The position numbers and the translations under genes are program-made. Of a stretch of 64,000 nt of DNA, positions 1 through 40,000 are shown in pieces. Where the stretch lies: assembly GCF_003018115.1 (NCBI RefSeq), contig NZ_CP027457.1. The stretch is one strand, 5' to 3'. Positions within the stretch are counted from its first letter, which is position 1, and each line of letters begins with the position of its first letter. Source of the DNA: Escherichia coli (lineage in GTDB: Bacteria; Pseudomonadota; Gammaproteobacteria; Enterobacterales; Enterobacteriaceae). The notes below the pieces were generated by a model. That model ran no database searches. It saw nothing but the letters and a program-made list of their open reading frames with translations, and had not been told where the DNA came from.

Positions 1-716
1 AGCGACTGCTGGATGAACTTAACAGCACGTTGCGCGATACCGGGCGTATGGGGCAACAACTGAGCGGAAAAGTTCGGGTCGCTGCCAGCCAGACCATTTC
101 CGCGCATCTTATTCCGCAATGCATTGCTGAAAGCCATCGCCGCTATCCAGATATTCAGTTTGTCCTGCACGATCGTCCGCAGCAGTGGGTGATGGAAAGT
201 ATTCGCCAGGGAGATGTCGACTTTGGCATCGTCATCGATCCAGGCCCAGTGGGCGATCTGCAATGTGAAGCGATTCTTTCCGAGCCTTTCTTTCTGCTTT
301 GCCATCGCGATAGCGCTTTGGCCGTGGAAGATTATGTACCCTGGCAGGCATTACAGGGAGCGAAATTGGTGTTGCAGGATTACGCGTCAGGCAGCCGACC
401 GCTGATTGACGCAGCGCTGGCGCGCAATGGTATTCAGGCGAATATTGTGCAGGAGATTGGACATCCGGCGACGCTGTTCCCGATGGTAGCCGCAGGCATC
501 GGCATCAGTATTCTTCCCGCACTGGCGCTACCATTGCCTGAAGGTAGCCCACTGGTGGTAAAGCGCATTACGCCGGTTGTTGAACGCCAGTTGATGCTGG
601 TGCGCAGGAAGAACCGTTCACTTTCCACCGCCGCTGAAGCGTTATGGGACGTGGTACGAGACCAGGGCAATGCGCTAATGGCTGGTCGGGAAGGGGATCC
701 GTTGTATCAGATATAG
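1..716 (+). CDS. yfeR: LysR-family transcriptional regulator, 5' end outside window (partial; frame of ORF 30..716)
   Basis: C-terminal LysR substrate-binding domain in the translation; position next to yfeN/xapA as in K-12 synteny. Confidence 0.75.
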
Positions 717-754
717 AGTGAATTCATACTGCCGGGAGCCCCGGCAGTAATCAA

Positions 755-1519
755 TCAGAAGTTAAATTTGATGGAGTAGATTATCGCATCCTGGTAAAAA
801 TCTTCGCCCAGTTTGTCATCCGCATATCGATACTGAATCCCCGTAGTAATGTGTGATGTTGCATTCCACCACAGTGCAACTGCGCCATTCAGCCCTTCTT
901 TACCGCCATTACCCGCTGCATAGGTAGCGTCACGGTCAAACTCGTACTCGTTCCAGTTGGTAAGAGTGAATTTCTCGCTGCCCAGCATAAAGTTGTAACC
1001 TGCAACCCAGCCGGCGACATAGCCGTTGTCGCCAGTGTAATAGGTTTGATCTGTATAACGCTTAGCAAAGAACGGTTTGAACCACCAACCGCTGCCGGTG
1101 AAATTGTAGCCGATACCGTACAGGAACATATCGTCGTGGAAATTCACGCGATTCGCAGAACCGTAGGTGCCATACGCATGCAAGTAGAAATTAAATCCGG
1201 TGTCACCCAGGTAAATACGGTTGGTATTTTTAAAGGTATAACGCTGCTCGCTACCTGGTTTATTATGGCGACCGTTATAGAAGTTTTCCCAGTCGAAGAA
1301 CCCGTACATTTCTCCCCAACTAAAGTTAGCGCCACCTTCAAATTCAAGATAGCCAAAATCATCTTTGTGTGATTTGGTCGACGATTTTTCGGTAGTCCGG
1401 CTGGTCCAGTCCAGATAATGCACGCCGATATCTGCAAAACCGCCTTTAAATTCTGCATGAGATACAACAGGTATCGCTAATATAGAGGAAAGTGTCAGAG
1501 TTAAAAGATGTTTTTTCAT
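755..1519 (-). CDS. yfeN: Tsx/OmpK-family nucleoside-specific outer-membrane channel homologue
   Basis: 254 aa with signal peptide ending ..VVSHA, aromatic-rich beta-barrel composition, C-terminal F; adjacent to xapA. Confidence 0.85.
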   Translation of the reverse strand: MKKHLLTLTLSSILAIPVVSHAEFKGGFADIGVHYLDWTSRTTEKSSTKSHKDDFGYLEFEGGANFSWGEMYGFFDWENFYNGRHNKPGSEQRYTFKNTNRIYLGDTGFNFYLHAYGTYGSANRVNFHDDMFLYGIGYNFTGSGWWFKPFFAKRYTDQTYYTGDNGYVAGWVAGYNFMLGSEKFTLTNWNEYEFDRDATYAAGNGGKEGLNGAVALWWNATSHITTGIQYRYADDKLGEDFYQDAIIYSIKFNF

Positions 1520-1767
1520 AGCATAATTCCCTATGCCGATCGTTATTAGTAGATTGCTTAATAAAGTGGTTTGCTAAAAACGACATATTGTTAATGCAAA
1601 GGAATTAATATCGCCAATACAGTTTTTACCGTGGATTAATAGAGGAAAGATATAAATCCATCGATATCGAATCGCTATTGAATGCGTGAGAAAAGTGTAT
1701 TGGTAAGAGCCGGGACAACCTCGCTATAAAAAGGCGTTAGATTCCACCCTACAGAAAAAGGATATAT

Positions 1768-2601
1768 ATGTCTCAGGTTCAATTTTCTCATAACATGCTG
1801 TTTTGCATAGATATTATCAAGACTTATAAACCTGATTTCACGCCACGAGTGGCCTTTATTTTAGGTTCCGGGCTCGGCGCGCTGGCCGATCAGATTGAGA
1901 ACGCTGTCGCAATTTCCTACGAAAAGCTGCCGGGCTTCCCGGTAAGTACGGTACATGGTCATGCGGGGGAGTTAGTGCTGGGCTATCTCCAGGGCGTACC
2001 GGTGGTATGTATGAAAGGTCGCGGACATTTCTACGAAGGTCGTGGAATGACCATTATGACTGACGCAATTCGTACCTTTAAGCTGCTGGGCTGTGAGCTA
2101 CTGTTCTGCACCAATGCGGCAGGCTCGCTGCGTCCGGAAGTGGGGGCAGGCAGCCTGGTCGCATTGAAAGATCATATCAACACCATGCCAGGTACGCCGA
2201 TGGTGGGACTTAACGATGATCGTTTTGGAGAGCGTTTCTTCTCACTGGCAAATGCCTACGATGCGGAATACCGCGCACTGTTACAAAAAGTGGCGAAAGA
2301 AGAGGGTTTCCCTCTGACGGAGGGCGTGTTCGTCTCGTATCCGGGGCCGAATTTCGAGACTGCGGCGGAAATTCGCATGATGCAAATTATTGGTGGGGAT
2401 GTTGTTGGTATGTCTGTGGTGCCTGAGGTTATTTCAGCTCGCCATTGCGACCTTAAAGTCGTTGCGGTCTCTGCGATTACCAATATGGCGGAAGGTTTAA
2501 GCGATGTGAAATTGTCACATGCGCAAACGCTGGCGGCTGCGGAGCTCTCTAAGCAGAACTTCATCAACCTTATTTGTGGCTTTCTGCGCAAAATTGCCTG
2601 A
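1768..2601 (+). CDS. xapA: xanthosine phosphorylase (purine nucleoside phosphorylase II)
   Basis: 277 aa, PNP family, matches XapA as recalled; followed by xapB and xapR. Confidence 0.95.
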   Translation: MSQVQFSHNMLFCIDIIKTYKPDFTPRVAFILGSGLGALADQIENAVAISYEKLPGFPVSTVHGHAGELVLGYLQGVPVVCMKGRGHFYEGRGMTIMTDAIRTFKLLGCELLFCTNAAGSLRPEVGAGSLVALKDHINTMPGTPMVGLNDDRFGERFFSLANAYDAEYRALLQKVAKEEGFPLTEGVFVSYPGPNFETAAEIRMMQIIGGDVVGMSVVPEVISARHCDLKVVAVSAITNMAEGLSDVKLSHAQTLAAAELSKQNFINLICGFLRKIA

Positions 2602-2660
2602 GAAAAACAATAAGAAACGGCCTCGCGGGTGAGGCCAAATGATGCGACAAGGAAACGATT

Positions 2661-3917
2661 ATGAGCATCGCGATGCGCTTAAAGGTAATGTCCTTTTTGC
2701 AATATTTTATCTGGGGGAGCTGGCTGGTTACCCTCGGCTCTTACATGATTAATACCCTTCATTTCACCGGCGCTAATGTTGGCATGGTTTACAGTTCCAA
2801 AGGGATCGCCGCGATTATTATGCCTGGTATAATGGGGATCATCGCAGACAAATGGCTGCGTGCAGAACGTGCATACATGCTATGTCACCTGGTGTGTGCG
2901 GGCGTACTTTTTTATGCGGCATCCGTAACTGATCCGGATATGATGTTTTGGGTGATGTTAGTCAATGCGATGGCGTTTATGCCGACTATTGCGTTATCGA
3001 ACAGCGTCTCTTATTCCTGTCTTGCCCAGGCAGGGCTTGACCCGGTGACCGCTTTTCCGCCCATTCGCGTTTTTGGTACGGTGGGGTTCATTGTCGCGAT
3101 GTGGGCAGTAAGCCTGCTGCATCTGGAATTGAGTAGTCTGCAGCTGTATATCGCGTCCGGTGCGTCATTGCTGCTGTCGGCTTATGCGCTGACTTTGCCG
3201 AAGATTCCGGTTGCGGAGAAAAAAGCGACCACATCGCTTGCCAGCAAGCTGGGTCTGGATGCCTTCGTGCTGTTTAAAAATCCACGCATGGCCATCTTTT
3301 TCCTCTTTGCCATGATGCTGGGTGCGGTACTGCAAATTACCAACGTTTTTGGTAATCCGTTCCTACATGATTTCGCCCGTAACCCGGAGTTTGCTGACAG
3401 TTTTGTGGTGAAATATCCCTCCATTTTACTGTCAGTTTCACAGATGGCAGAAGTGGGCTTTATACTGACTATCCCATTCTTTTTAAAGCGATTTGGCATT
3501 AAAACCGTCATGCTGATGAGTATGGTGGCCTGGACGCTGCGCTTTGGCTTCTTCGCCTATGGCGATCCGTCAACAACCGGATTTATTTTGCTGCTGCTGT
3601 CGATGATTGTTTATGGCTGTGCATTCGATTTCTTCAATATTTCTGGTTCGGTATTTGTCGAACAGGAAGTTGATTCCAGCATTCGTGCCAGCGCGCAGGG
3701 GCTCTTTATGACCATGGTAAATGGTGTCGGCGCATGGGTTGGCTCGATTCTGAGTGGCATGGCAGTAGATTACTTTTCGGTGGATGGCGTAAAAGACTGG
3801 CAAACTATCTGGCTGGTGTTTGCAGGATATGCTCTTTTTCTCGCAGTGATATTTTTCTTTGGGTTTAAATATAATCATGACCCTGAAAAGATAAAGCATC
3901 GAGCGGTGGCTCATTAA
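2661..3917 (+). CDS. xapB: xanthosine/nucleoside:H+ symporter (MFS, NHS family)
   Basis: 418 aa polytopic membrane protein downstream of xapA. Confidence 0.93.
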   Translation: MSIAMRLKVMSFLQYFIWGSWLVTLGSYMINTLHFTGANVGMVYSSKGIAAIIMPGIMGIIADKWLRAERAYMLCHLVCAGVLFYAASVTDPDMMFWVMLVNAMAFMPTIALSNSVSYSCLAQAGLDPVTAFPPIRVFGTVGFIVAMWAVSLLHLELSSLQLYIASGASLLLSAYALTLPKIPVAEKKATTSLASKLGLDAFVLFKNPRMAIFFLFAMMLGAVLQITNVFGNPFLHDFARNPEFADSFVVKYPSILLSVSQMAEVGFILTIPFFLKRFGIKTVMLMSMVAWTLRFGFFAYGDPSTTGFILLLLSMIVYGCAFDFFNISGSVFVEQEVDSSIRASAQGLFMTMVNGVGAWVGSILSGMAVDYFSVDGVKDWQTIWLVFAGYALFLAVIFFFGFKYNHDPEKIKHRAVAH

Positions 3918-3969
3918 AAGGATTCGCAGCTCTGCTCTTCAGAGCTGCTTTTATGATAAAGGTTAATTA

Positions 3970-4128
3970 GTGAAAGATATTTTATTTTCTTCCGGCGTTG
4001 GTTTTGGCATTGGTGCTTTGTTTACAATCGTGCGCTTGCCTATTCCTGTACCAAATGTATTACCGGGTATATTATCCATTGTGTTTATGTATGTCGGATA
4101 TCTGGTGGTGAAATACTTTATGCCATGA
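3970..4128 (+). CDS. small hydrophobic XapX-like membrane protein (52 aa, GTG start), not in the supplied ORF track
   Basis: GTG at 3970 preceded by AAAGG about 9 nt upstream; translation VKDILFSSGVGFGIGALFTIVRLPIPVPNVLPGILSIVFMYVGYLVVKYFMP; lies in the xapB-xapR gap. Confidence 0.5.
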   Translation: MKDILFSSGVGFGIGALFTIVRLPIPVPNVLPGILSIVFMYVGYLVVKYFMP

Positions 4129-4168
4129 TAATTTAATACGATGTATTTATTATATGGAGCACTTAATC

Positions 4169-5053
4169 ATGGAACGCGTATACAGAACAGATCTTAAGTT
4201 GCTCCGTTATTTTCTTGCCGTAGCGGAAGAGTTGCATTTTGGCCGCGCAGCAGCGCGTTTAAATATGTCTCAGCCTCCGCTCAGTATTCATATTAAAGAA
4301 CTGGAAAATCAACTCGGCACGCAGCTTTTTATTCGCCATTCGCGCAGCGTCGTACTGACACACGCGGGCAAAATCTTGATGGAAGAATCGCGTCGATTGC
4401 TGGTGAATGCTAATAATGTATTGGCTCGGGTTGAACAAATAGGTCGGGGAGAAGCAGGGCGGATTGAACTCGGCGTAGTGGGAACGGCAATGTGGGGACG
4501 GATGCGCCCGGTTATGCGGCGATTCCTCAGGGAAAATCCTAACGTTGACGTTCTTTTTCGCGAAAAGATGCCCGCGATGCAAATGGCCTTGCTGGAACGC
4601 CGCGAACTTGATGCCGGGATCTGGCGAATGGCGACAGAACCACCGACTGGTTTTACCAGCTTACGGTTGCATGAATCGGCGTTTCTGGTGGCGATGCCTG
4701 AAGAGCATCATCTCTCATCATTTTCCACCGTCCCGCTGGAAGCGCTACGTGACGAGTATTTTGTTACAATGCCGCCCGTTTACACTGACTGGGATTTTTT
4801 GCAGCGAGTTTGCCAGCAGGTGGGATTTTCACCGGTTGTTATTCGCGAAGTTAATGAACCGCAAACGGTACTCGCTATGGTCAGTATGGGCATTGGTATC
4901 ACATTGATAGCGGACAGCTACGCACAAATGAACTGGCCAGGTGTCATTTTCCGTCCGCTCAAACAGCGCATCCCTGCAGATTTATATATTGTTTATGAAA
5001 CACAGCAGGTGACGCCCGCGATGGTTAAGCTGTTGGCTGCATTGACACAGTAG
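4169..5053 (+). CDS. xapR: LysR-family activator of the xap operon
   Basis: Translation from MERVYRTDLKLLRYF (294 aa) has an HTH N-terminus; the ORF-track start at 4154 adds 5 codons that are probably not translated. Confidence 0.9.
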   Translation: MERVYRTDLKLLRYFLAVAEELHFGRAAARLNMSQPPLSIHIKELENQLGTQLFIRHSRSVVLTHAGKILMEESRRLLVNANNVLARVEQIGRGEAGRIELGVVGTAMWGRMRPVMRRFLRENPNVDVLFREKMPAMQMALLERRELDAGIWRMATEPPTGFTSLRLHESAFLVAMPEEHHLSSFSTVPLEALRDEYFVTMPPVYTDWDFLQRVCQQVGFSPVVIREVNEPQTVLAMVSMGIGITLIADSYAQMNWPGVIFRPLKQRIPADLYIVYETQQVTPAMVKLLAALTQ

Positions 5054-5130
5054 GTGAGGAGACAGGAATTGCCGGAAATAGTAGTCTGCTAAGTGAAGCG
5101 CATCAGGCAATTTCGCAAATCGCAGATAGC

Positions 5131-5158
5131 AAAAAAGCGCCTTTAGGGCGCCTTTTTA
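5131..5158. terminator. GC hairpin flanked by A-run and T-run; bidirectional intrinsic terminator between xapR and the tRNA operon
   Basis: aaaaaagcgcctttagggcgccttttt. Confidence 0.5.
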
Positions 5159-5161
5159 CAT

Positions 5162-5237
5162 TGGTGGGTCGTGCAGGATTCGAACCTGCGACCAATTGAT
5201 TAAAAGTCAACTGCTCTACCAACTGAGCTAACGACCC
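5162..5237 (-). tRNA. lysV: tRNA-Lys (UUU)
   Basis: Reverse complement reads GGGTCGTTAGCTCAGTTGGTAGAGCAGTTGACTTTTAATCAATTGGTCGCAGGTTCGAATCCTGCACGACCCACCA. Confidence 0.95.
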
Positions 5238-5241
5238 GAAG

Positions 5242-5317
5242 TGGTGGGTGATGACGGGATCGAACCGCCGACCCCCTCCTTGTAAGGGAGGTGCTCTCCC
5301 AGCTGAGCTAATCACCC
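5242..5317 (-). tRNA. valY: tRNA-Val (UAC)
   Basis: Reverse complement reads GGGTGATTAGCTCAGCTGGGAGAGCACCTCCCTTACAAGGAGGGGGTCGGCGGTTCGATCCCGTCATCACCCACCA; which of the K-12 val paralogues it corresponds to is uncertain. Confidence 0.95.
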
Positions 5318-5361
5318 ACTTCTCAATTTCTTGCTACACGGCGGAGACTACATAAAGTAGT

Positions 5362-5437
5362 TGGTGGGTGATGACGGGATCGAACCGCCGACCCCCTCCT
5401 TGTAAGGGAGGTGCTCTCCCAGCTGAGCTAATCACCC
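5362..5437 (-). tRNA. valU: tRNA-Val (UAC), second identical copy
   Basis: Identical 76-nt sequence 44 bp upstream (in operon sense) of the first Val gene. Confidence 0.95.
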
Positions 5438-5695: not shown

Positions 5696-7111
5696 ATGAA
5701 AATCAAAACTCGCTTCGCGCCAAGCCCAACAGGCTATCTGCACGTTGGCGGCGCGCGTACTGCTCTTTACTCCTGGCTTTTTGCACGTAACCACGGCGGT
5801 GAGTTCGTGCTGCGTATTGAAGACACCGATCTTGAGCGTTCCACGCCGGAAGCTATCGAAGCCATTATGGATGGCATGAACTGGCTGAGCCTGGAGTGGG
5901 ATGAAGGTCCGTACTTCCAGACCAAACGTTTTGATCGCTACAACGCGGTGATCGATCAGATGCTGGAAGAGGGCACAGCTTATAAATGCTATTGCTCTAA
6001 AGAGCGCCTGGAAGCGCTGCGCGAAGAGCAAATGGCGAAAGGTGAGAAGCCGCGTTATGACGGTCGCTGCCGCCACAGTCATGAGCATCACGCTGATGAT
6101 GAGCCGTGTGTCGTACGTTTTGCTAACCCGCAGGAAGGTTCTGTTGTTTTTGACGATCAGATCCGTGGTCCGATCGAGTTCAGCAACCAGGAACTGGACG
6201 ATCTTATTATCCGCCGTACCGATGGTTCCCCAACCTATAACTTCTGTGTGGTTGTCGATGACTGGGATATGGAAATCACCCACGTTATCCGTGGCGAAGA
6301 CCATATCAACAACACGCCACGCCAGATCAACATTCTTAAGGCCCTGAAAGCGCCGGTGCCGGTTTACGCGCACGTTTCTATGATCAATGGCGATGACGGT
6401 AAAAAACTGTCCAAACGTCACGGGGCAGTCAGCGTAATGCAGTATCGTGATGACGGTTATTTGCCAGAAGCACTGCTGAACTATCTGGTGCGTCTGGGCT
6501 GGTCCCACGGCGATCAGGAAATCTTCACTCGTGAAGAGATGATCAAATACTTCACTTTGAATGCCGTCAGCAAATCTGCCAGTGCGTTCAACACCGACAA
6601 GCTGCTGTGGCTGAACCATCACTACATTAACGCGCTGCCGCCGGAGTATGTTGCTACTCACTTACAGTGGCACATTGAGCAGGAAAATATCGATACCCGT
6701 AACGGCCCGCAGCTGGCTGATCTGGTGAAACTGCTGGGCGAACGCTGCAAGACGCTGAAAGAGATGGCACAGAGCTGCCGTTATTTCTACGAAGATTTTG
6801 CTGAGTTCGATGCCGATGCGGCGAAAAAACATCTGCGTCCGGTAGCGCGTCAGCCGCTGGAAGTGGTTCGTGACAAACTGGCCGCGATTACTGACTGGAC
6901 CGCTGAAAACGTTCATCACGCTATTCAGGCGACGGCGGATGAGCTGGAAGTGGGTATGGGTAAAGTTGGTATGCCGCTGCGTGTCGCCGTAACCGGTGCG
7001 GGGCAGTCTCCAGCACTGGATGTTACCGTTCACGCAATTGGTAAGACCCGCAGTATCGAGCGTATCAACAAAGCGCTGGATTTTATTGCTGAACGCGAAA
7101 ATCAGCAGTAA
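5696..7111 (+). CDS. gltX: glutamyl-tRNA synthetase
   Basis: 471 aa; class I aaRS HIGH-type motif ([11 protein letters not shown]) and KLSKR motif. Confidence 0.97.
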
Positions 7112-7127
7112 TTAGCGTGTAAAAAGA

Positions 7128-7162
7128 TAAACGGCAGGAGATAATATCCTGCCGTTTTTTAT
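7128..7162. terminator. intrinsic terminator between convergent gltX and yfeD
   Basis: acggcaggagataatatcctgccgtttttt hairpin plus T-run. Confidence 0.6.
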
Positions 7163-7555
7163 TTATGCTGATTCGTCAATATCGAGACGGGCGAGGAAAT
7201 TGCGAATTCCTTCACGTGACAAAAATTGCGCGACTTTTTCCTGCTCAATGTCTGTCATATTATCTATCGCGTTGATGATTTGTCGATACGCCGGGGCGCG
7301 TGCTCCAGGAGCGTATTCAGCAATTCTCTCTTCAGCTTCCATCAACATTGGTGTGTTATGGAACGCAGGCGTGTTCTGAATAAACTCGCAAACTTGCGTA
7401 TCGACCAGAATAAGTCTGGCACGACCGCCTTTCACGCCGGGAAATTTTTCCGTTTTCCAGCCTTTTTCTCTGATCCAACGGTTAACAGTTTGTTTAGCCA
7501 CACCGAGGCATTCAGCCAGTTCTTCGGTGGTCATTTTATTGCGTAATCTTTTCAT
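7163..7555 (-). CDS. yfeD: putative DNA-binding protein (YfeC/YfeD family)
   Basis: 130 aa, HTH-like N-terminus, paralogue of the adjacent gene. Confidence 0.85.
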   Translation of the reverse strand: MKRLRNKMTTEELAECLGVAKQTVNRWIREKGWKTEKFPGVKGGRARLILVDTQVCEFIQNTPAFHNTPMLMEAEERIAEYAPGARAPAYRQIINAIDNMTDIEQEKVAQFLSREGIRNFLARLDIDESA

Positions 7556-7556
7556 A

Positions 7557-7901
7557 TTATTTGCTATCGCGAATCCCTAAGCGTTGTAACAATCCGATAA
7601 TCCCTTCCCGCAGAAGCAAGGATGTAAACTGTTTTTGTTCAACTGGCGTCATCTCTTTCGCCAGTGTCACCAGCAATACTTCAAGCGGCGCATCACCAGA
7701 AAGGGCAAGCGCTTCTCCCTGACCTTCTGGACGTTCAGCATTACGAATATATTCACGAACCTGTTCATTGACGTGAACCAGTCGGGCTTTGCCACCCTGG
7801 ACGCCTGGTTTTGGTGACGTCGTCCAGCCTTCCTTGCGTACCCATTTATTAATGGTCTGGCGGCTATAGCCGGTCAGTCTGGCAAGTTCATCTGGCGTCA
7901 T
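7557..7901 (-). CDS. yfeC: putative DNA-binding protein (YfeC/YfeD family)
   Basis: 114 aa from MTPDELARL; ORF-track start at 7916 adds 5 codons. Confidence 0.85.
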   Translation of the reverse strand: MTPDELARLTGYSRQTINKWVRKEGWTTSPKPGVQGGKARLVHVNEQVREYIRNAERPEGQGEALALSGDAPLEVLLVTLAKEMTPVEQKQFTSLLLREGIIGLLQRLGIRDSK

Positions 7902-8075
7902 CCTCTCCTTGAACATAACAATTCCCTGAGTGTATGTGGGTCTATTAGTAGTTCATTTTATAGCACCACTTTACAGGAAACCGTGACATGAATAACTACT
8001 GAATGCGAGCGGTTTTCCAAAATTGTTCATTTGCCTGATTTTTCAGCGATTGAAACTACACGCTGCAATTTGCCG

Positions 8076-8104
8076 TTGACACATTCGGGCGGAATTCATA
8101 TGAT
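8076..8104 (+). promoter_or_regulatory. sigma70 promoter of the tRNA-Ala operon with GC-rich discriminator
   Basis: TTGACA, 17-nt spacer, TATGAT, then gccgcccg, about 30 nt upstream of the first tRNA-Ala. Confidence 0.55.
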
Positions 8105-8136
8105 GCCGCCCGTCAACTCGACAAGCTTTACGTGAC

Positions 8137-8212
<76 letters not shown>

Positions 8213-8251
8213 AATTTTGCACCCAGCAAATTTGGTACGTAAACGCATCGT

Positions 8252-8327
<76 letters not shown>

Positions 8328-8534
8328 AATTTCCAACCCTCGCTGCAAAGCGGGGGTTTTTTGTCTCTGCTTTTTGCCGCTTTTGTAATACAGTCTACGT
8401 CCGGGTTAGCGCCGCCTGGTGAAAGCATCATTGGATGAAAAATCGGCAACAGGCTGGCCCTTGTTTGCTTCGCGATGCGAATAAACTTATTATTTGTGTG
8501 CCTGAAAACCCCGATCAGTGAGAGTAGTGTACTC

Positions 8535-10724
8535 ATGTTTGTGGAGCATAACCTGATAAAAAATATCAAGATATTCACACTAGCGTTTACGCTCACCGTG
8601 GTACTTATTCAGCTTTCCCGTTTTATTTCGCCACTTGCCATTATCCATTCCAGTTATATCTTTCTGGCGTGGATGCCACTGTGCGTAATGCTGTCAATCT
8701 TGTTTATCTTTGGCTGGCGCGGTGTCGTTCCCGTTTTATGCGGGATGTTTTGCACCAATCTGTGGAACTTTCATCTCTCTTTTTTACAGACTGCAGTCAT
8801 GCTCGGTAGCCAGACGTTTGTCGTGTTGTGTGCCTGCGCAATATTACGCTGGCAGCTGGGGACGCGTTGGCGCTATGGATTGACCAGCCGATATGTCTGG
8901 CAACGCCTGTTCTGGCTTGGTTTGGTGACGCCGATCGGCATCAAATGCAGCATGTATCTTGTGGGGAGCTTCTTTGATTTCCCGCTAAAGATATCCACCT
9001 TTTTCGGCGATGCGGATGCCATTTTCACGGTCGTTGATTTGCTAAGCCTTTTCACCGCTGTGCTGATTTACAACATGCTTTTCTACTATCTCACTCGCAT
9101 GATTGTAAGTCCCCACTTTGCGCAGATATTGTGGCGCAGGGATATCGCTCCGTCATTGGGTAAAGAGAAACGCGCATTTACCTTAAGCTGGCTGGCAGCG
9201 TTAAGCGTGCTGCTACTTCTGCTGTGCACACCTTATGAAAACGACTTTATTGCCGGTTACCTGGTACCCGTTTTCTTCATCATCTTTACCCTCGGGGTCG
9301 GTAAGCTTCGCTATCCGTTTTTAAATCTCACCTGGGCTGTTTCAACGCTTTGCCTGCTGAATTACAACCAGAACTTTTTGCAAGGGGTGGAAACCGAATA
9401 TTCGCTGGCATTTATTCTCGCGGTGCTGATTTCCTTTAGCGTTTGCCTGCTCTATATGGTGCGCATTTATCATCGCAGTGAATGGCTTAATCGCCGCTGG
9501 CATTTGCAGGCGCTGACCGATCCGTTAACGCTCCTGCCCAACTTTCGTGCGTTGGAACAAGCACCGGAGCAAGAGGTGGGCAAGAGTTTTTGCTGCCTGC
9601 GCATTGATAATCTTGAGTTTATGAGTCGTCATTACGGGTTAATGATGCGCGTTCACTGTATCCGCTCAATTTACCGTACGCTGCTGCCGTTGATGCAGGA
9701 AAACGAAAAGTTGTATCAATTGCCGGGTAGTGAACTGCTGTTAGTGCTGAGCGGGCCGGAAACGGAAGGGCGACTCCAGCATATGGTTAACATCCTGAAT
9801 AGTCGGCAAATTCACTGGAACAATACCGGGCTGGATATGGGCTATGGTGCTGCCTGGGGGCGTTTTGATGGAAATCAGGAAACCCTGCAACCCTTGTTGG
9901 GGCAGTTAAGCTGGCTGGCGGAGCAATCCTGCGCACATCACCATGTGCTGGCGCTGGATAGCAGAGAGGAGATGGTTTCCGGGCAGACCACTAAACAGGT
10001 GCTATTGCTGAATACCATTCGCACGGCGTTAGATCAGGGGGATTTGCTGCTCTACGCCCAGCCAATTCGCAACAAAGAGGGTGAAGGTTATGATGAGATC
10101 CTCGCGCGACTGAAATATGACGGCGGCATTATGACCCCGGATAAGTTTCTGCCCCTTATTGCTCAGTTTAACCTTAGCGCGCGTTTTGATTTGCAAGTGC
10201 TGGAATCCTTGTTGAAGTGGCTGGCAACACACCCTTGCGACAAAAAAGGACCGCGCTTTTCAGTCAATTTAATGCCGCTCACGCTGCTGCAAAAGAATAT
10301 TGCCGGGCGGATTATTCGTCTGTTTAAGCGTTATCACATCTCCCCGCAGGCGGTCATTCTTGAGATCACCGAGGAGCAGGCGTTTTCTAACGCAGAAAGC
10401 AGCATGTACAACATCGAGCAGCTGCATAAGTTTGGTTTCCGGATTGCGATTGATGACTTTGGCACCGGATATGCCAACTACGAACGGTTAAAGCGTTTGC
10501 AGGCTGATATCATCAAAATTGATGGCGTCTTTGTGAAAGATATTGTCACGAATACGCTGGATGCGATGATTGTGAGATCAATTACCGATCTGGCGAAAGC
10601 GAAGTCATTGAGTGTGGTCGCGGAGTTTGTCGAGACGCAACAGCAGCAGGCGCTATTGCATAAGCTCGGGGTGCAATATCTGCAAGGGTATTTGATTGGT
10701 CGCCCGCAGCCATTAGCTGATTAA
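8535..10724 (+). CDS. pdeA: c-di-GMP phosphodiesterase, MASE1-(degenerate GGDEF)-EAL
   Basis: 729 aa from MFVEHNLIKN; N-terminal polytopic membrane domain, C-terminal EAL domain; ORF-track start at 8475 is probably an upstream extension. Confidence 0.9.
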   Translation: MFVEHNLIKNIKIFTLAFTLTVVLIQLSRFISPLAIIHSSYIFLAWMPLCVMLSILFIFGWRGVVPVLCGMFCTNLWNFHLSFLQTAVMLGSQTFVVLCACAILRWQLGTRWRYGLTSRYVWQRLFWLGLVTPIGIKCSMYLVGSFFDFPLKISTFFGDADAIFTVVDLLSLFTAVLIYNMLFYYLTRMIVSPHFAQILWRRDIAPSLGKEKRAFTLSWLAALSVLLLLLCTPYENDFIAGYLVPVFFIIFTLGVGKLRYPFLNLTWAVSTLCLLNYNQNFLQGVETEYSLAFILAVLISFSVCLLYMVRIYHRSEWLNRRWHLQALTDPLTLLPNFRALEQAPEQEVGKSFCCLRIDNLEFMSRHYGLMMRVHCIRSIYRTLLPLMQENEKLYQLPGSELLLVLSGPETEGRLQHMVNILNSRQIHWNNTGLDMGYGAAWGRFDGNQETLQPLLGQLSWLAEQSCAHHHVLALDSREEMVSGQTTKQVLLLNTIRTALDQGDLLLYAQPIRNKEGEGYDEILARLKYDGGIMTPDKFLPLIAQFNLSARFDLQVLESLLKWLATHPCDKKGPRFSVNLMPLTLLQKNIAGRIIRLFKRYHISPQAVILEITEEQAFSNAESSMYNIEQLHKFGFRIAIDDFGTGYANYERLKRLQADIIKIDGVFVKDIVTNTLDAMIVRSITDLAKAKSLSVVAEFVETQQQQALLHKLGVQYLQGYLIGRPQPLAD

Positions 10725-10730
10725 CAGGCG

Positions 10731-10764
10731 TAAAAAAGCCGGGGAATGATCCCCGGCTTTTTTA
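10731..10764. terminator. bidirectional intrinsic terminator between pdeA and nupC
   Basis: aaaaaagccggggaatgatccccggctttttt. Confidence 0.6.
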
Positions 10765-10773
10765 TGTATGGTT

Positions 10774-11976
10774 TTACAGCACCAGTGCTGCGATTGACGC
10801 AGACAGCACACTCACCAGGGTAGAGCCGTAAACCAGTTTCAGACCGAAGCGAGAAACCACGTTACCTTGCTCTTCATTCAGGCCTTTAACTGCACCTGCG
10901 ATAATCCCGATTGAAGAGAAGTTAGCGAAGGAAACCAGGAACACAGAGATGATGCCTTCAGCACGCGGAGAGAGCGTGGAAGCAATTTTCTGCAGATCCA
11001 TCATCGCAACGAACTCGTTGGAAACCAGTTTGGTCGCCATGATACTGCCCACTTGCAGTGCTTCACTGGAAGGAACACCCATCACCCATGCAATCGGATA
11101 GAAGATGTAGCCCAGAATGCCCTGGAAGGAGATGCTGTAGCCAAACCAGCCAGTCACGGTGGCAAACAGTGCGTTCAGCGCGGCGATCAGGGCGATAAAG
11201 CCGATCAGCATCGCGGCAACGATAATGGCAACTTTGAAACCTGCCAGAATGTATTCACCCAGCATTTCGAAGAAGCTCTGACCTTCGTGCAGGTTGGACA
11301 TCTGAATGTTTTCTTCACTGGCATCAACACGGTAAGGGTTGATCAGCGACAGCACGATAAAGGTGCTGAACATGTTCAATACCAGCGCAGCAACGACGTA
11401 TTTCGGTTCCAGCATGGTCATGTATGCACCAACGATGGACATCGACACGGTGGACATTGCCGTGGCAGCCATGGTGTACATACGATTACGGGAGATTTTG
11501 CCGAGGATATCTTTATAGGCAATAAAGTTTTCAGACTGACCCAGAATCAGGGAGCTGACGGCGTTAAAGGATTCCAGTTTGCCCATGCCGTTGACTTTGG
11601 AGAGCAGGAAACCAATTGCGCGGATGATCACCGGCAACACGCGAATGTGCTGGAGAATACCGATCAGTGCAGAGATAAAGACGATTGGGCACAGCACTTT
11701 CAGGAAGAAGAATGCCAGGCCTTGATCATTCATGCTACCAAAGACGAAGTTAGTCCCTTCGTTGGCAAATCCGAGCAGTTTTTCGAACATTTCGGAGAAG
11801 CCTTTCACGAAGCCTAAACCAACGTCGGAGTTCAGGAAGAACCACGCCAGTAACACTTCGATAACAAGCAGTTGAATAACATAACGGATACGAATTTTTT
11901 TGCGGTCGCTGCTTACCAGCAGTGCGAGAATCGCAACAACGGCAAGTGCCAGTACAAAATGAAGGACGCGGTCCAT
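10774..11976 (-). CDS. nupC: nucleoside:H+ symporter (CNT family)
   Basis: 400 aa from [11 protein letters not shown]; ORF-track start at 12015 adds 13 codons. Confidence 0.95.
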
Positions 11977-12240
11977 ATTTGCTCCAAATATGAGGCAGGT
12001 TAAATTTCCGTGCACATTCTATGTAACATGGTTAAGGAAAACGAGATCTGACACACACTATAATGACGTCCTGTGACAAGCTTCAAAAATAGTGATCTGT
12101 CATACATTTCTGCTATGTTGTGTATGGAAGCTGAAAGTTATGTAAATGTGCTAACATTAAACATAACCATAACATTCAAGTCATCAATCTTTTCGTAGTC
12201 ATAATCCTGGTCTATCAAAGAAATCACCACAACCCATTCA

Positions 12241-12262
12241 AATGAATTTGATAATCATTCTC
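12241..12262. promoter_or_regulatory. Fur box in the mntH promoter
   Basis: aatgaatttgataatcattctc resembles the GATAATGATAATCATTATC consensus. Confidence 0.5.
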
Positions 12263-12277
12263 GTTTGGCATAGCATG

Positions 12278-12299
12278 AAACATAGCAAAGGCTATGTTT
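12278..12299. promoter_or_regulatory. MntR operator (inverted repeat) in the mntH promoter
   Basis: aaacatagcaaaggctatgttt, a perfect 9-bp inverted repeat about 15 bp upstream of the mntH start. Confidence 0.6.
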
Positions 12300-12302
12300 T
12301 AG

Positions 12303-13550
<1,248 letters not shown>

Positions 13551-13577
13551 TTGAATGAGCGTCGCATCTGGCACTAT

Positions 13578-13667
<90 letters not shown>

Positions 13668-13690
13668 TTGTGCTCCATTGGCAAATGTGT

Positions 13691-14017
13691 TTAATGGCGG
13701 TGCCCATGTCCGCGGCCTTTTCCGCGATGATCGTCACGATCGCGCCAGCCTTCACGATAGCCACGCTCATACGCTTTACGCTTATCCCAGCCACGGTGGT
13801 AGCCATTATCATGACGCCACCAGCGGTTTTTACGCCATTCATAATTGCGATGCCAGTAATCACGATCTCGCCAGTGACCACCGTCCCAGTAATTACCGTA
13901 ATGATCGCGATCGCCAATTTGTAATTTGATTGATGGCAGTAGGGTGATTTCACCTGCGTTTGCTGCAAGCGGGGTAAATGCCATCAGGGCGGCCGCCAGA
14001 AACAGTGACCTGAACAT
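13691..14017 (-). CDS. ypeC: small periplasmic protein with Arg/His/Trp-rich repeats (DUF2502-like)
   Basis: 108 aa, signal peptide ...PLAANA, repetitive RDxxW/HR-rich C-terminus. Confidence 0.85.
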
Positions 14018-14131
14018 TGTTATTCTCCTTCACGATCGAAGCCGTCAGCGGCCTGTTAACGCAATATTACGGGGAGGTAAAGCCCCGTATCATCGCCATA
14101 ACTCTTAAATCATAAAGGAGAGCATTTTTTG

Positions 14132-15388
14132 CTAAACGTTATCGTGGGGTGGCTGTTGCTTCGGACGATTGACCATCATCATCGGCTTACCTGCTAATAA
14201 CAGCCATGCCGGAAGCATGACGATACAGAGCAGCGGTAGCAATGTGGTATTGGGTACAACGACTGCCGCCATAAAAAGACTTAACCAGCCATCGCGTGTT
14301 ACCACCAGCACGATGCCGAGAATAGCGCAGGAAACGGTTATTGCCGCTGGAACGGCGGGGACGTGCTCATGCAGCATCAACCCTAATGCCACGCCGACGA
14401 ACACTGCCGGGAAGATTCGCCCACCGCGAAAGCCACTGGCGGCAGCAACGACCAGGGCGGCAAGTTTAATTACCGCCAGCAAAAAGTAATCGCTGGTGCT
14501 GAAAGCCTGATTTGCCACCATCTGCTGCATCTCATCCAGTCCTTTAAACAGCGAAACCGGCCCACCAATAACCCCCAGAATACCGAGAATAAATCCGCCA
14601 ATACCCAGCACGAGCACCGGATTTTTCATTTGATGCATCATCGCGTGCAATCGTGGTAAGCACCATACGGCGACCATCCCTGCTGCGATGGCAATCGCCG
14701 CGACAATTGCACCGCTGAGAATATCGGTCATTTCCATCTGTCCGTAATGCGCAATGGGCAGTGAAAAATGAGGATGGAAAAATAATCCGGTAGTAAGTGC
14801 ACCAGCTGCTGCCGCCATTAACGGCGCAAAAAGACGATCCCATAGCGGAACTTCACTACTGCCATTTAAGGTTTGCGAAAATATCAACGCCGCCGCAACA
14901 GGTGTACCAAACAGCGCGCCGATGGTTCCGGCAGAGGCTAAAATAGTCCACTCCATTCGGTTGACGCGCGGTAACAGACGAGCGCCAATGGCAACCGCAA
15001 GGGCGATATTGACGGTCATGATCGGATGTTCCGGCCCCAGGCTGACGCCGCCAGCAAGACCGAGAATTAATGCTACGATAAGTCCAGGTAGCGCAGAGGG
15101 CGGAACCGGTGCGCCGATCAGCGGTTCACTGGCGGGGTCTGGTCCGGCATGACCCTGGCTGAAACGGATAACCAACCCCACCGCAATACCCGTTAGCGTT
15201 AATACACCGATGATCCAGAGGGGTGAATCCTGGGCTATCCCCAGAGTTCCCGGCAGTCGTTGCCAGAGCAAATTCTGTAATACCGAGGCGATTTTCATCA
15301 CCACAATCAGAATAAGACTGGACGCAATCCCAATTGCCACGGCGGGGAGCGATAATAACAACATGGTTCTGGCTCGCGGATGGAGCAT
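14132..15388 (-). CDS. yfeO: ClC-family ion channel/transporter homologue
   Basis: 418 aa polytopic membrane protein with GxGxPxG-like ClC motifs. Confidence 0.88.
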
Positions 15389-37047: not shown

Positions 37048-40000
37048 TTAGTTATTTTGTTGACAGAAAACAGCAATCTCCTGGTCCAGCTCTGCAATGT
37101 GTTCTTTTACAGAGTTCAGCAACTGAAGAATTTCAGGCTTACTGTCATCTGAAACAGGTGTTATTTCTAACTGATGGCTAATATTAATCAACTTTTGCAA
37201 ATTCAGGATGTTAGCCGCACCGTGGATGCGATGAATACACTGATGGAAAGTTCTATTATCGCCAGCTTCTAGTGCATGAAACGCAGCGGATAAATCTTTA
37301 TGTGTTTCATGCTGGAAAGTCATGAGAATCTCCTGCATCAGTTGTAGATCGTTCGCCGTATTATTTTTCAGGGCCTCGATATCAAGGTGGCGATACTGAG
37401 GTACAATATGCGCAACCTGGTGTAACTGACTTAAATGTGTTTTCAGTACATCCAGGGTCAACGGTTTGAACAAACATAAGTTCATGCCGCAATTTAACCC
37501 TTTTTCACGTTCGTTAGCCTGTGCGTTGGCTGTAAGCCCCCAGATGGGTAAGGACGAATTTTGCTCACGGAGTTTGCGAGTCAACTCAAAACCATCCATA
37601 TTCGGCATATTAACGTCAGTAATAAGCAGATCATAATGTTGCATACTGACTTTGTGTAGCGCTTGCACACCATCAGTGGCTTCGTCAACATCATATCCTA
37701 ATAGATTTAGCTGGCGTTTGAGTAATAGCCTGTTGGTCGGATGATCATCCGCGATTAATATGCTCAACTTTTCAGGTAGTGTGATAGGTTGTTCTGCTTT
37801 TGCCTCGACAGCCGCCACTTGTTGGGTAATTTCTACCGGGATTGTGATCGTAAATGTTGTTCCTATGCCTGGATGACTTTCTAATGACAAATCACCCTGC
37901 ATGTTTTTAATTAATTCTTTGCAGATCATTAAGCCTAAACCAGAACCTGTTTGCTGACGACCTGCACTTGTTTGGCTATAACGTTTAAACAGTTGTTGTT
38001 GTTCTTCCTGTGATAATCCACTTCCAGAATCCATAATCGTCATTTTGATTACAGCGTGGTTGTCATCAATGTGACCCAGGGAGGTCGTAATTTTTACTGC
38101 CCCCTCGGTGGTAAATTTGAGAGCATTACTCAGTAAATTTGATAAGACCTGCTTAAACGCCTGAGGGTCGATCTTAACTAGGTAATGTTCAGGAAACGTA
38201 CTGCTGCAACTTAATGCGATCGATTTGCTTGCAGCAATCGCACCGAAAGAGTGACAAGTGTTCTGGACTAAAGTAGGAATATCGACCCATTGTGGTTGAA
38301 GTTGATAGTTACCCGATTCAATTTTGTCGACATCAAGGATTTCACCAATTAAGCCGAGGAGTGATTGTCCGGTGGCGTAGGCAAGTGAAATCGCCTCCAC
38401 CCGTTGTTCCTTGCTAAGACCAGAACCCGACAGAAGTTCCAGGAAGCCCATAATAGAGCTTATTGGTGTTCTTATTTCGTGACTCATCGTTGCCAGAAAC
38501 TGACTTTTTGCTACGGTAGCCTTTATCGCTTTATTTTTTTCTACCTCGAGTGCATTAATTAGATCACGCGTTTCAGTAATATCTTGCCAACCACAAATAT
38601 ATACTGCATTGTCACTTGCAGGAAGATTGCATAATGTATGCCAGTGATTAATGCATCTTTTCTCGATGCCATTATCAATTTCAAATACCTGTGTGTATAT
38701 TGTTCGGTTTTCTTTCGTCTCTGCTGTGACTTCATGCGTATTAGAAAAAACATCTTTAAAGGGTGATTCACTGTTTTCTAATGGCAACATTGCATTTTTG
38801 TAGTAATCAGCAGTGAAATAATGTTCAAATGCACTATTGTGACTAATGACATTACCTTGCCAGTTTACAACATAAGTTGGATTCGGTAAGGAGTCCGAGA
38901 GCGCTTTCCGGAATGATATTTGGTTTTCTAAATCACCCTGAATGACTTTACGACGACGAACTGAGCGTAACAGGTAGAATCCCCATAAAAGGCTACTGCC
39001 AACTAATAAAACGGATAATGTCGTAACAATATAAAATTGCTCGCTATAGAGGTCCCATGTGTCAATGGTCACATTGGGCATTTTAATCCATTTTTCCGTC
39101 AGGCGCAGAACTTCGCTTGGGGGGATTGCATTCAGTGCTTTATTAATAATATCCTTAAGTTCCGGTTCTCCGCGAGGAAAAGCGAACGAAAGCGATGCAT
39201 TCGGAACGCCGGGAATAAGAAAATGATAAAGTTCATTAGGATAGTAATGGTCGATCATGTAACGCGAATTTAGCTGTGTCGCGACCAGAGCATCAAGTTC
39301 ACCTTCCTTGACCTTGTGAAATGCAGCGCTGGCGTTATCGACTTTTATCCACTCTACCTCCGGATACATCTCTTTTAATTGCGAATGCAGCTCATAATAA
39401 TATGGAATGGCAACTTTCATTCCTTTTTTTAATGTTTGTTCACTGTCAGGCGCTTTTTGCATGACAAAAACGTAAGGCGTTGTTATGAAGGCTTCAGCAA
39501 ATAAAACATTATTTTCTCTATCTTCACTATAAATAGCACCGGGTAATATATCCCATCCGCCGGGATTCAGCTGTGTTCCGGCATGGATATTGTGTGAAAC
39601 GGTGATCGGAGAAAAATTTAAACCTGTTTGCAAGGTAATAATATTAAGAATGTCCCCCATAACGCCCCGAACCGAGCCATTTTCATCCGTCATAGAATAG
39701 GGGGGCGAGTAAGGATTTTCCAGCACCTTTAAATCGGGATGCTGCTTAATCCACTGTTTTTCATGTTCAGTGAGTTCTAATGGCTTGTTCAGAAAGGCTA
39801 GGTTTCCTGTATCAAGCCAATTTTGTGATACTTCATAGCGAACTTCATTTGTTAAAGCATCAACAAATCGATTGAGTACTTCATTAAGAATGACAGATTC
39901 TTTTCTGGTTAAGAAGAAGTTATATTGACGCGGTGAGTTATAATATTTCACTACATTTAAGGAGTGAGTGAAATAGCGGGAAATCATACTGCTGGTAATG

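Follow-up and report, generated by a model that had tools for sequence, protein, structure and literature searches.

The 49 bp between the convergent genes pdeA and nupC in the Escherichia coli sequence analysed here (64,000 nucleotides of contig NZ_CP027457.1, referred to below as the window) are best explained as an intact, never-interrupted terminator shared by the two genes, the GGGG-N6-CCCC core of which corresponds to the preferred target of the insertion sequence IS186, as that target is quoted in a citing paper. In this explanation, to which a probability of roughly 0.9 was attached, the spacer has kept the ancestral empty state and its terminator is presumably functional. Two parts of the explanation are inferred, namely termination of transcription at the hairpin in vivo and a site that was at no time occupied in the lineage of the window.

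The pdeA-nupC spacer and its putative terminator

pdeA (yfeA) is situated at 8535..10724 on the + strand and was identified from its open reading frame and translation; the 729-aa product is a c-di-GMP phosphodiesterase/diguanylate cyclase family protein, and the TAA stop codon lies at 10722-10724. nupC, at 10774..11976 on the - strand, encodes a nucleoside:H+ symporter of 400 aa and has its TAA stop codon at 10776-10774. Both names are borne out by the ETEC strain F8111-1SC3, an annotated stretch of which is 100% identical and contains pdeA (WP_001400648.1) and nupC (WP_000376337.1). The 3′ ends of the two genes adjoin a spacer of exactly 49 bp (10725..10773), which lies between the convergent stop codons and represents the IS186 site without IS186. 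It reads CAGGCGT-AAAAAA-GCCGGGGA-ATGA-TCCCCGGC-TTTTTT-ATGTATGGTT. The locus consists of this spacer only, and lacks the 23-bp terminal inverted repeats (CATAAGCGCTAACTTAAGGGTTG) and the insL transposase gene that characterize an IS186 element; no copy of the terminal repeat was found on either strand of the whole 64-kb window.

The putative bidirectional intrinsic terminator occupies positions 10732..10763. It is composed of an A6 tract (10732-10737), a stem arm of 8 bp, GCCGGGGA (10738-10745), the loop ATGA (10746-10749), the second stem arm, TCCCCGGC (10750-10757), and a T6 tract (10758-10763). Seven of the 8 bp in the stem are G-C pairs. The spacer RNA was predicted to fold with -31.1 kcal/mol on the + strand and -25.6 kcal/mol on the - strand (z-scores of -8.0 and -7.0, respectively), and none of 200 shuffled sequences was as stable, so that the GC-rich stem-loop is stable beyond chance on both strands. 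A terminator scan likewise called the hairpin on both strands. Because of the A6 and T6 tracts, the hairpin is immediately followed by a U-tract in either transcript, and it lies just past the stop codons of both genes. When positions 7000-14500 were scanned with Rfam, no RNA family was matched in the spacer; the only matches were two tRNA-Ala genes.

It is apparent that this structure resembles the bidirectional Rho-independent terminators found between convergent genes, with a single GC-rich hairpin set between an A-tract and a T-tract. The hairpin is placed 7-10 nt after each stop codon, and nothing unusual was seen in comparison with such terminators. Either transcript would be expected to end in the hairpin followed by a run of U residues, and the spacer would then act as the shared Rho-independent terminator of pdeA and nupC, intact and never interrupted. 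The original prediction, which described a 49-bp spacer with a clean bidirectional terminator, agrees with the coordinates, with the folds of both strands and with the scan; termination in vivo is what a sequence of this kind would lead one to expect.

Comparison with K-12

In MG1655 (NC_000913.3), an element annotated as 'insertion sequence:IS186C' is present at 2514273..2515617, with insL3 (b2394), between nupC (b2393) and pdeA (b2395). The original prediction was thus correct in placing a copy of IS186 in this interval in K-12 MG1655. The arrangement in BW2952 is the same as that in MG1655, and the K-12 laboratory strains among the genomes listed match the K-12 junction at 100%. IS186C is 1339 bp long, ends in terminal inverted repeats of 23 bp and is bounded by a direct duplication of 10 bp, GGAATTATCC. 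In the orientation of the window, the MG1655 junctions read ...AAAAAAACCGGGGAATTATCC/CATAAGCG...CGCTTATG/GGAATTATCCCCGGCTTTTTT..., in which a slash marks each junction. The duplication could be delimited at anything from 8 to 12 bp, since the ends of IS186 continue the palindrome of the target.

The alignment to MG1655 that had been proposed as a check was performed, and the insertion is present in it, not missing. Once the IS and one copy of the duplication are removed, MG1655 aligns with the window free of gaps, and the 1398 bp of the MG1655 intergenic region are accounted for as 49 bp of spacer, 1339 bp of IS and 10 bp of target duplication. Within the spacer, the window differs from K-12 at three positions (10738, G vs A; 10748, G vs T; 10773, T vs C). 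The flanks are 98.76% identical to MG1655 over 3777 bp and 99.13% over 3887 bp, with 80 mismatches in total (7.7 kb). Locus, flanking genes and hairpin are therefore those of the IS186C insertion in MG1655, and the window differs from it in having no IS186. With neither IS186C between nupC and pdeA nor flanks nearly identical to those of MG1655, the window does not belong to the K-12 lineage. That the strain is not K-12 derived, as had been claimed, is evident from the same identities when they are set against the 99.989% found with F8111-1SC3.

The two arms of the hairpin are separated by IS186C in K-12. The 3′ regions of K-12 pdeA and nupC fold with only -8.9 and -10.2 kcal/mol (z-scores of -0.04 and -0.40), as does shuffled sequence, vs -24.4 kcal/mol when the empty K-12 allele is reconstructed. 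In K-12, insL3-pdeA was placed by an RNA-seq survey among the convergent pairs with overlapping transcription (PMC12288877). This overlap does not, of course, prove that the terminator has been lost in K-12, but it is consistent with such a loss. K-12 transcript data are uninformative with regard to the intact terminator, because the hairpin is split in that strain.

The stem as a target for IS186

The preferred target of IS186 is quoted as 5′-GGGG(N6/N7)CCCC in PMC6925257, where Chong 1985 and saiSree 2001 are cited; the consensus used here was taken from that citing paper and not from saiSree et al. 2001. Within the limits of that quotation, the GGGG-N6-CCCC core of the stem, GGGGAATGATCCCC (10741..10754), matches the consensus. 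The terminator stem is the sole match to GGGG(N6/N7)CCCC in the 64-kb window, in which about 0.4 would be expected by chance. The 10 bp at 10743..10752, GGAATGATCC, are those that flank IS186 as a direct repeat where the window allele is occupied. The site thus has both the consensus match and, as described below, repeated independent IS186 insertions at the same position that mark a hot spot. Since the core of the stem matches the consensus as quoted, the hairpin would be at once a terminator and a preferred IS186 target. In K-12 and many other strains, IS186 has entered the stem core, with duplication of 10 bp, and has split the arms of the hairpin.

A comparable hot spot is known in the lon promoter, where spontaneous insertions of IS186 occur at one position in either orientation (PMC3045373). 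The two sites are alike in having a target made up of a G-run and a C-run that is repeatedly hit at one position and in both orientations. They differ in that the lon site is in a promoter, where insertion gives a selectable Lon-deficient phenotype, whereas the pdeA-nupC site is a terminator between convergent genes, where insertion is not known to give a phenotype, and is unoccupied in the window. No paper on IS186 at the nupC, yfeA or pdeA site was found in a literature search.

Distribution of IS186 at the site

The state of the locus was determined for 5426 complete E. coli genomes. Occupancy was scored with a probe consisting of 60 bp of flank and the 23-bp IS186 end, and orientation with junction probes; the counts are of genomes and not of independent events, and laboratory clones of K-12 are over-represented in the collection. 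Of the 5426 genomes, 4460 (82%) have an uninterrupted locus, among them O157:H7, ST131 and E. coli B, and 946 (approximately 17%) have IS186 at the exact position. According to the junction probes, the element has the K-12 orientation in 474 genomes and the opposite orientation in 467; the latter set is made up of wild strains, for example HS, ATCC 8739, E. coli C, H10407 and UMNK88. In those listed strains that are not obviously K-12, the IS186 transposase is mostly co-directional with pdeA (HS, ATCC 8739, H10407, O169:H41). The K-12 orientation, co-directional with nupC, is in the minority among such listed strains, yet it was observed in at least 20 wild genomes. Clonal inheritance, target asymmetry or selection may account for this bias.

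About 20 genomes are in other states, neither uninterrupted nor occupied by IS186, and two of them were inspected. In E. coli 2020CK-00188 (locus 780-960), the spacer is longer and contains the terminator hairpin twice, flanking one REP-like palindrome (GCCTGATGCGCT.CGCTTATCAGGCCTAC). A longer spacer was also seen in Escherichia whittamii (locus 9215-9470), with the hairpin present twice around a longer REP-containing insert. A REP-containing spacer with two hairpins is a third natural state of the locus. In E. coli FXCREC035 (NZ_CM135826.1, 3000-4100), pdeA is truncated by ISApl1, which abuts a partial evgS; the sequence past ISApl1 matches positions 37910-39839 of the window, and approximately 27 kb, including nupC, appear to have been deleted.

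Independent insertions

The flanks and the duplication of K-12 and HS are identical; the two IS copies lie in opposite orientations and, this apart, have a single base difference. At least 60 wild genomes, NCTC86 among them, carry the exact pre-insertion allele of K-12 (990 bp, 100% identity) with the site empty. The window's own hairpin allele is occupied by IS186 in 46 genomes. In F6326-C1, HUSEC2011 and CX21, the duplication on both sides of the element is GGAATGATCC, vs GGAATTATCC for the K-12 allele, and it follows that the insertion took place in the window allele itself. Seventeen of these 46 genomes have the K-12 orientation, and the three that were inspected (F6326-C1, HUSEC2011 and CX21) have the opposite one. 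Two alleles, each occupied in two orientations, imply at least four independent insertions.

It might be argued that the two orientations derive from one old insertion that later inverted where it lay, for instance through recombination between its 23-bp terminal inverted repeats, in which case the site would not be a recurrent target. The near identity of the K-12 and HS copies, in shared flanks and with a shared duplication, is what such an event would leave. The same haplotype is, however, also empty in at least 60 genomes, and the second haplotype, which carries its own duplication allele on both sides of the element, requires a separate insertion in any case. At the lon promoter, moreover, IS186 is on record as inserting spontaneously at a single position in either orientation (PMC3045373). 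Inversion in place is consequently considered very unlikely, and less likely for K-12 and HS than independent insertion. On the sequence evidence, then, the terminator is a recurrent natural target of IS186, and K-12 is unrepresentative at this site, a modest addition to what is known.

In E. coli 14EC047 (NZ_CP024155.1, approximately 2540-3940), the repeats that flank IS186 at the site are unequal, the left one being GGAATTATCC and the right one GGAATGATCC. The IS186 copy there is 1336 bp long and its transposase is annotated as frameshifted. This site looks like a recombinant between two occupied alleles, or the result of a point mutation.

Close relatives and the ancestral state

The sequence of the window is 99.989% identical over 44 kb to that of ETEC F8111-1SC3, in which the site is empty, and 100% identical over 3051 bp at the locus. 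Its identity with O169:H41 F6326-C1, in which IS186 is present, is 99.99-100%, with 3 bases different in approximately 43 kb of flanks. F8111-1SC3 and F6326-C1 have 0 mismatches to each other over 48.6 kb, and in this shared stretch the window has 3 mismatches to each. As the window and F8111-1SC3 are empty and the nearly identical F6326-C1 is occupied, the simplest history is a recent gain of IS186 in the F6326-C1 line. The strain of the window is a close relative of these two ETEC isolates and would then have kept the ancestral empty terminator. Further afield, the 49-bp spacer is shared by the outgroup Escherichia sp. E1V33, where it contains the hairpin GCCGGGGAATTATCCCCGGC and lies in a gap-free alignment of 2049 bp at 92.8% identity. 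The predominance of the uninterrupted state (4460 of 5426 genomes), the E1V33 outgroup and local parsimony among the nearest relatives together support the view, put forward in the original prediction as an 'ancestral empty site', that the empty site is probably ancestral.

A site that had been emptied secondarily, by precise excision of an IS186 carried by the ancestor or by recombinational replacement with an empty allele, would look identical. That a very close relative, F6326-C1, is occupied with only 3 bases different in approximately 43 kb of flanks, and that the exact hairpin allele of the window is occupied in 46 genomes, would both accord with such a loss. The complete agreement of the empty F8111-1SC3 with F6326-C1 over 48.6 kb, to each of which the window has 3 mismatches, nevertheless makes a single recent gain in the F6326-C1 line the simplest account, and neither a scar nor an extra duplication is present at the site. 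Secondary loss would have required the clean removal of the IS together with one copy of the duplication, which would be a rare event. Taken together, nothing supports a secondary loss of IS186 in the lineage of the window, and this alternative is regarded as unlikely. A negligible probability was assigned to the further alternative that the clean junction is an assembly artefact, an IS186 copy having been collapsed out. IS elements do, in general, break or confuse short-read assemblies, but no specific support for an artefact was found here; where an IS has been collapsed, a break in the contig or a leftover duplication is to be expected and not an exact 49-bp spacer, and thousands of complete genomes contain this sequence, F8111-1SC3 among them, with 100% identity over 3051 bp.

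Several other features of the relatives were observed. Over positions 1-5437 of the window (the xapR/xapB/xapA/yfeN side), identity to F8111-1SC3 and F6326-C1 is no more than 99.52% (20 mismatches, 4 gaps), as against 99.99% in the 44 kb that follow, which points to a tract of local recombination or to another relative. At 5162-5437, the window has a valU-type tRNA cluster consisting of 2 tRNA-Val(UAC) and tRNA-Lys(UUU), compared with 3 tRNA-Val and Lys in F8111-1SC3 and F6326-C1, so that the window is shorter by 120 bp (one repeat unit). The best full-length megablast match of positions 1-25000, at 98.7%, had raised the possibility of a strain outside the collection (e.g. Shigella). This was ruled out by the 99.989% identity to F8111-1SC3; the megablast ranking favoured distant full-length genomes because the matches to the close relatives are split at the tRNA-Val cluster. 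Over a 49-kb stretch, F8111-1SC3 and F6326-C1 differ only in IS186 and in two 1-base gaps. The annotation of F8111-1SC3 gives dsdA and evgS as frameshifted; both are intact in F6326-C1, to which the window aligns free of gaps.

A scan of genome contigs for the hairpin returned 13 loci, in only three of which pdeA/nupC flanks were found: E1V33, E. whittamii and a contig from an Alkalicoccobacillus assembly. The last of these, 289 bp long and 98.6% identical to the E. coli locus, is E. coli-like and probably a contaminant. Ten unrelated contigs (MAGs and genomes of Bacillota, Verrucomicrobiae and Alphaproteobacteria), which are without similarity to the pdeA or nupC flanks, contain exact matches to the 23-nt hairpin pattern CCGGGGAATNATCCCCGGCTTTT.

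Implications

As an intrinsic terminator the feature is ordinary, and IS targets of this kind are already known; for the window itself it is of little import, since non-K-12 status is already plain from the level of SNPs. The proposal that the empty site marks a strain as non-K-12 holds in so far as it excludes K-12; as a marker it is weak, the empty state being common to 82% of E. coli. Occupancy, for its part, is not specific to K-12, IS186 being present at the site, in one orientation or the other, in 946 genomes, among them the wild strains HS, ATCC 8739, H10407 and HUSEC2011. The marker is therefore asymmetric: an empty site together with approximately 1% divergence excludes K-12 descent, and a filled site is no sign of K-12. 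As even nearly identical ETEC isolates differ in its state, the site is of use for fine-scale typing and, when occupied, of little value as an indicator of K-12 ancestry.

It is conceivable, though rather doubtful, that the occupancy of approximately 17% and the four or more independent events reflect selection in addition to target preference. If so, splitting of the hairpin would remove termination for both genes, and read-through would alter the expression of nupC or pdeA; alternatively, depending on orientation, read-through from nupC or pdeA may drive the transposase. Either effect might be favoured in some lineages, and the window would provide the unaltered state against which to compare them.

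K-12 is atypical at this locus, its pdeA-nupC terminator having been destroyed by IS186C. It follows that transcript maps, terminator catalogues and calls of convergent overlap made in K-12, such as that for insL3-pdeA (PMC12288877), would misdescribe most E. coli here.
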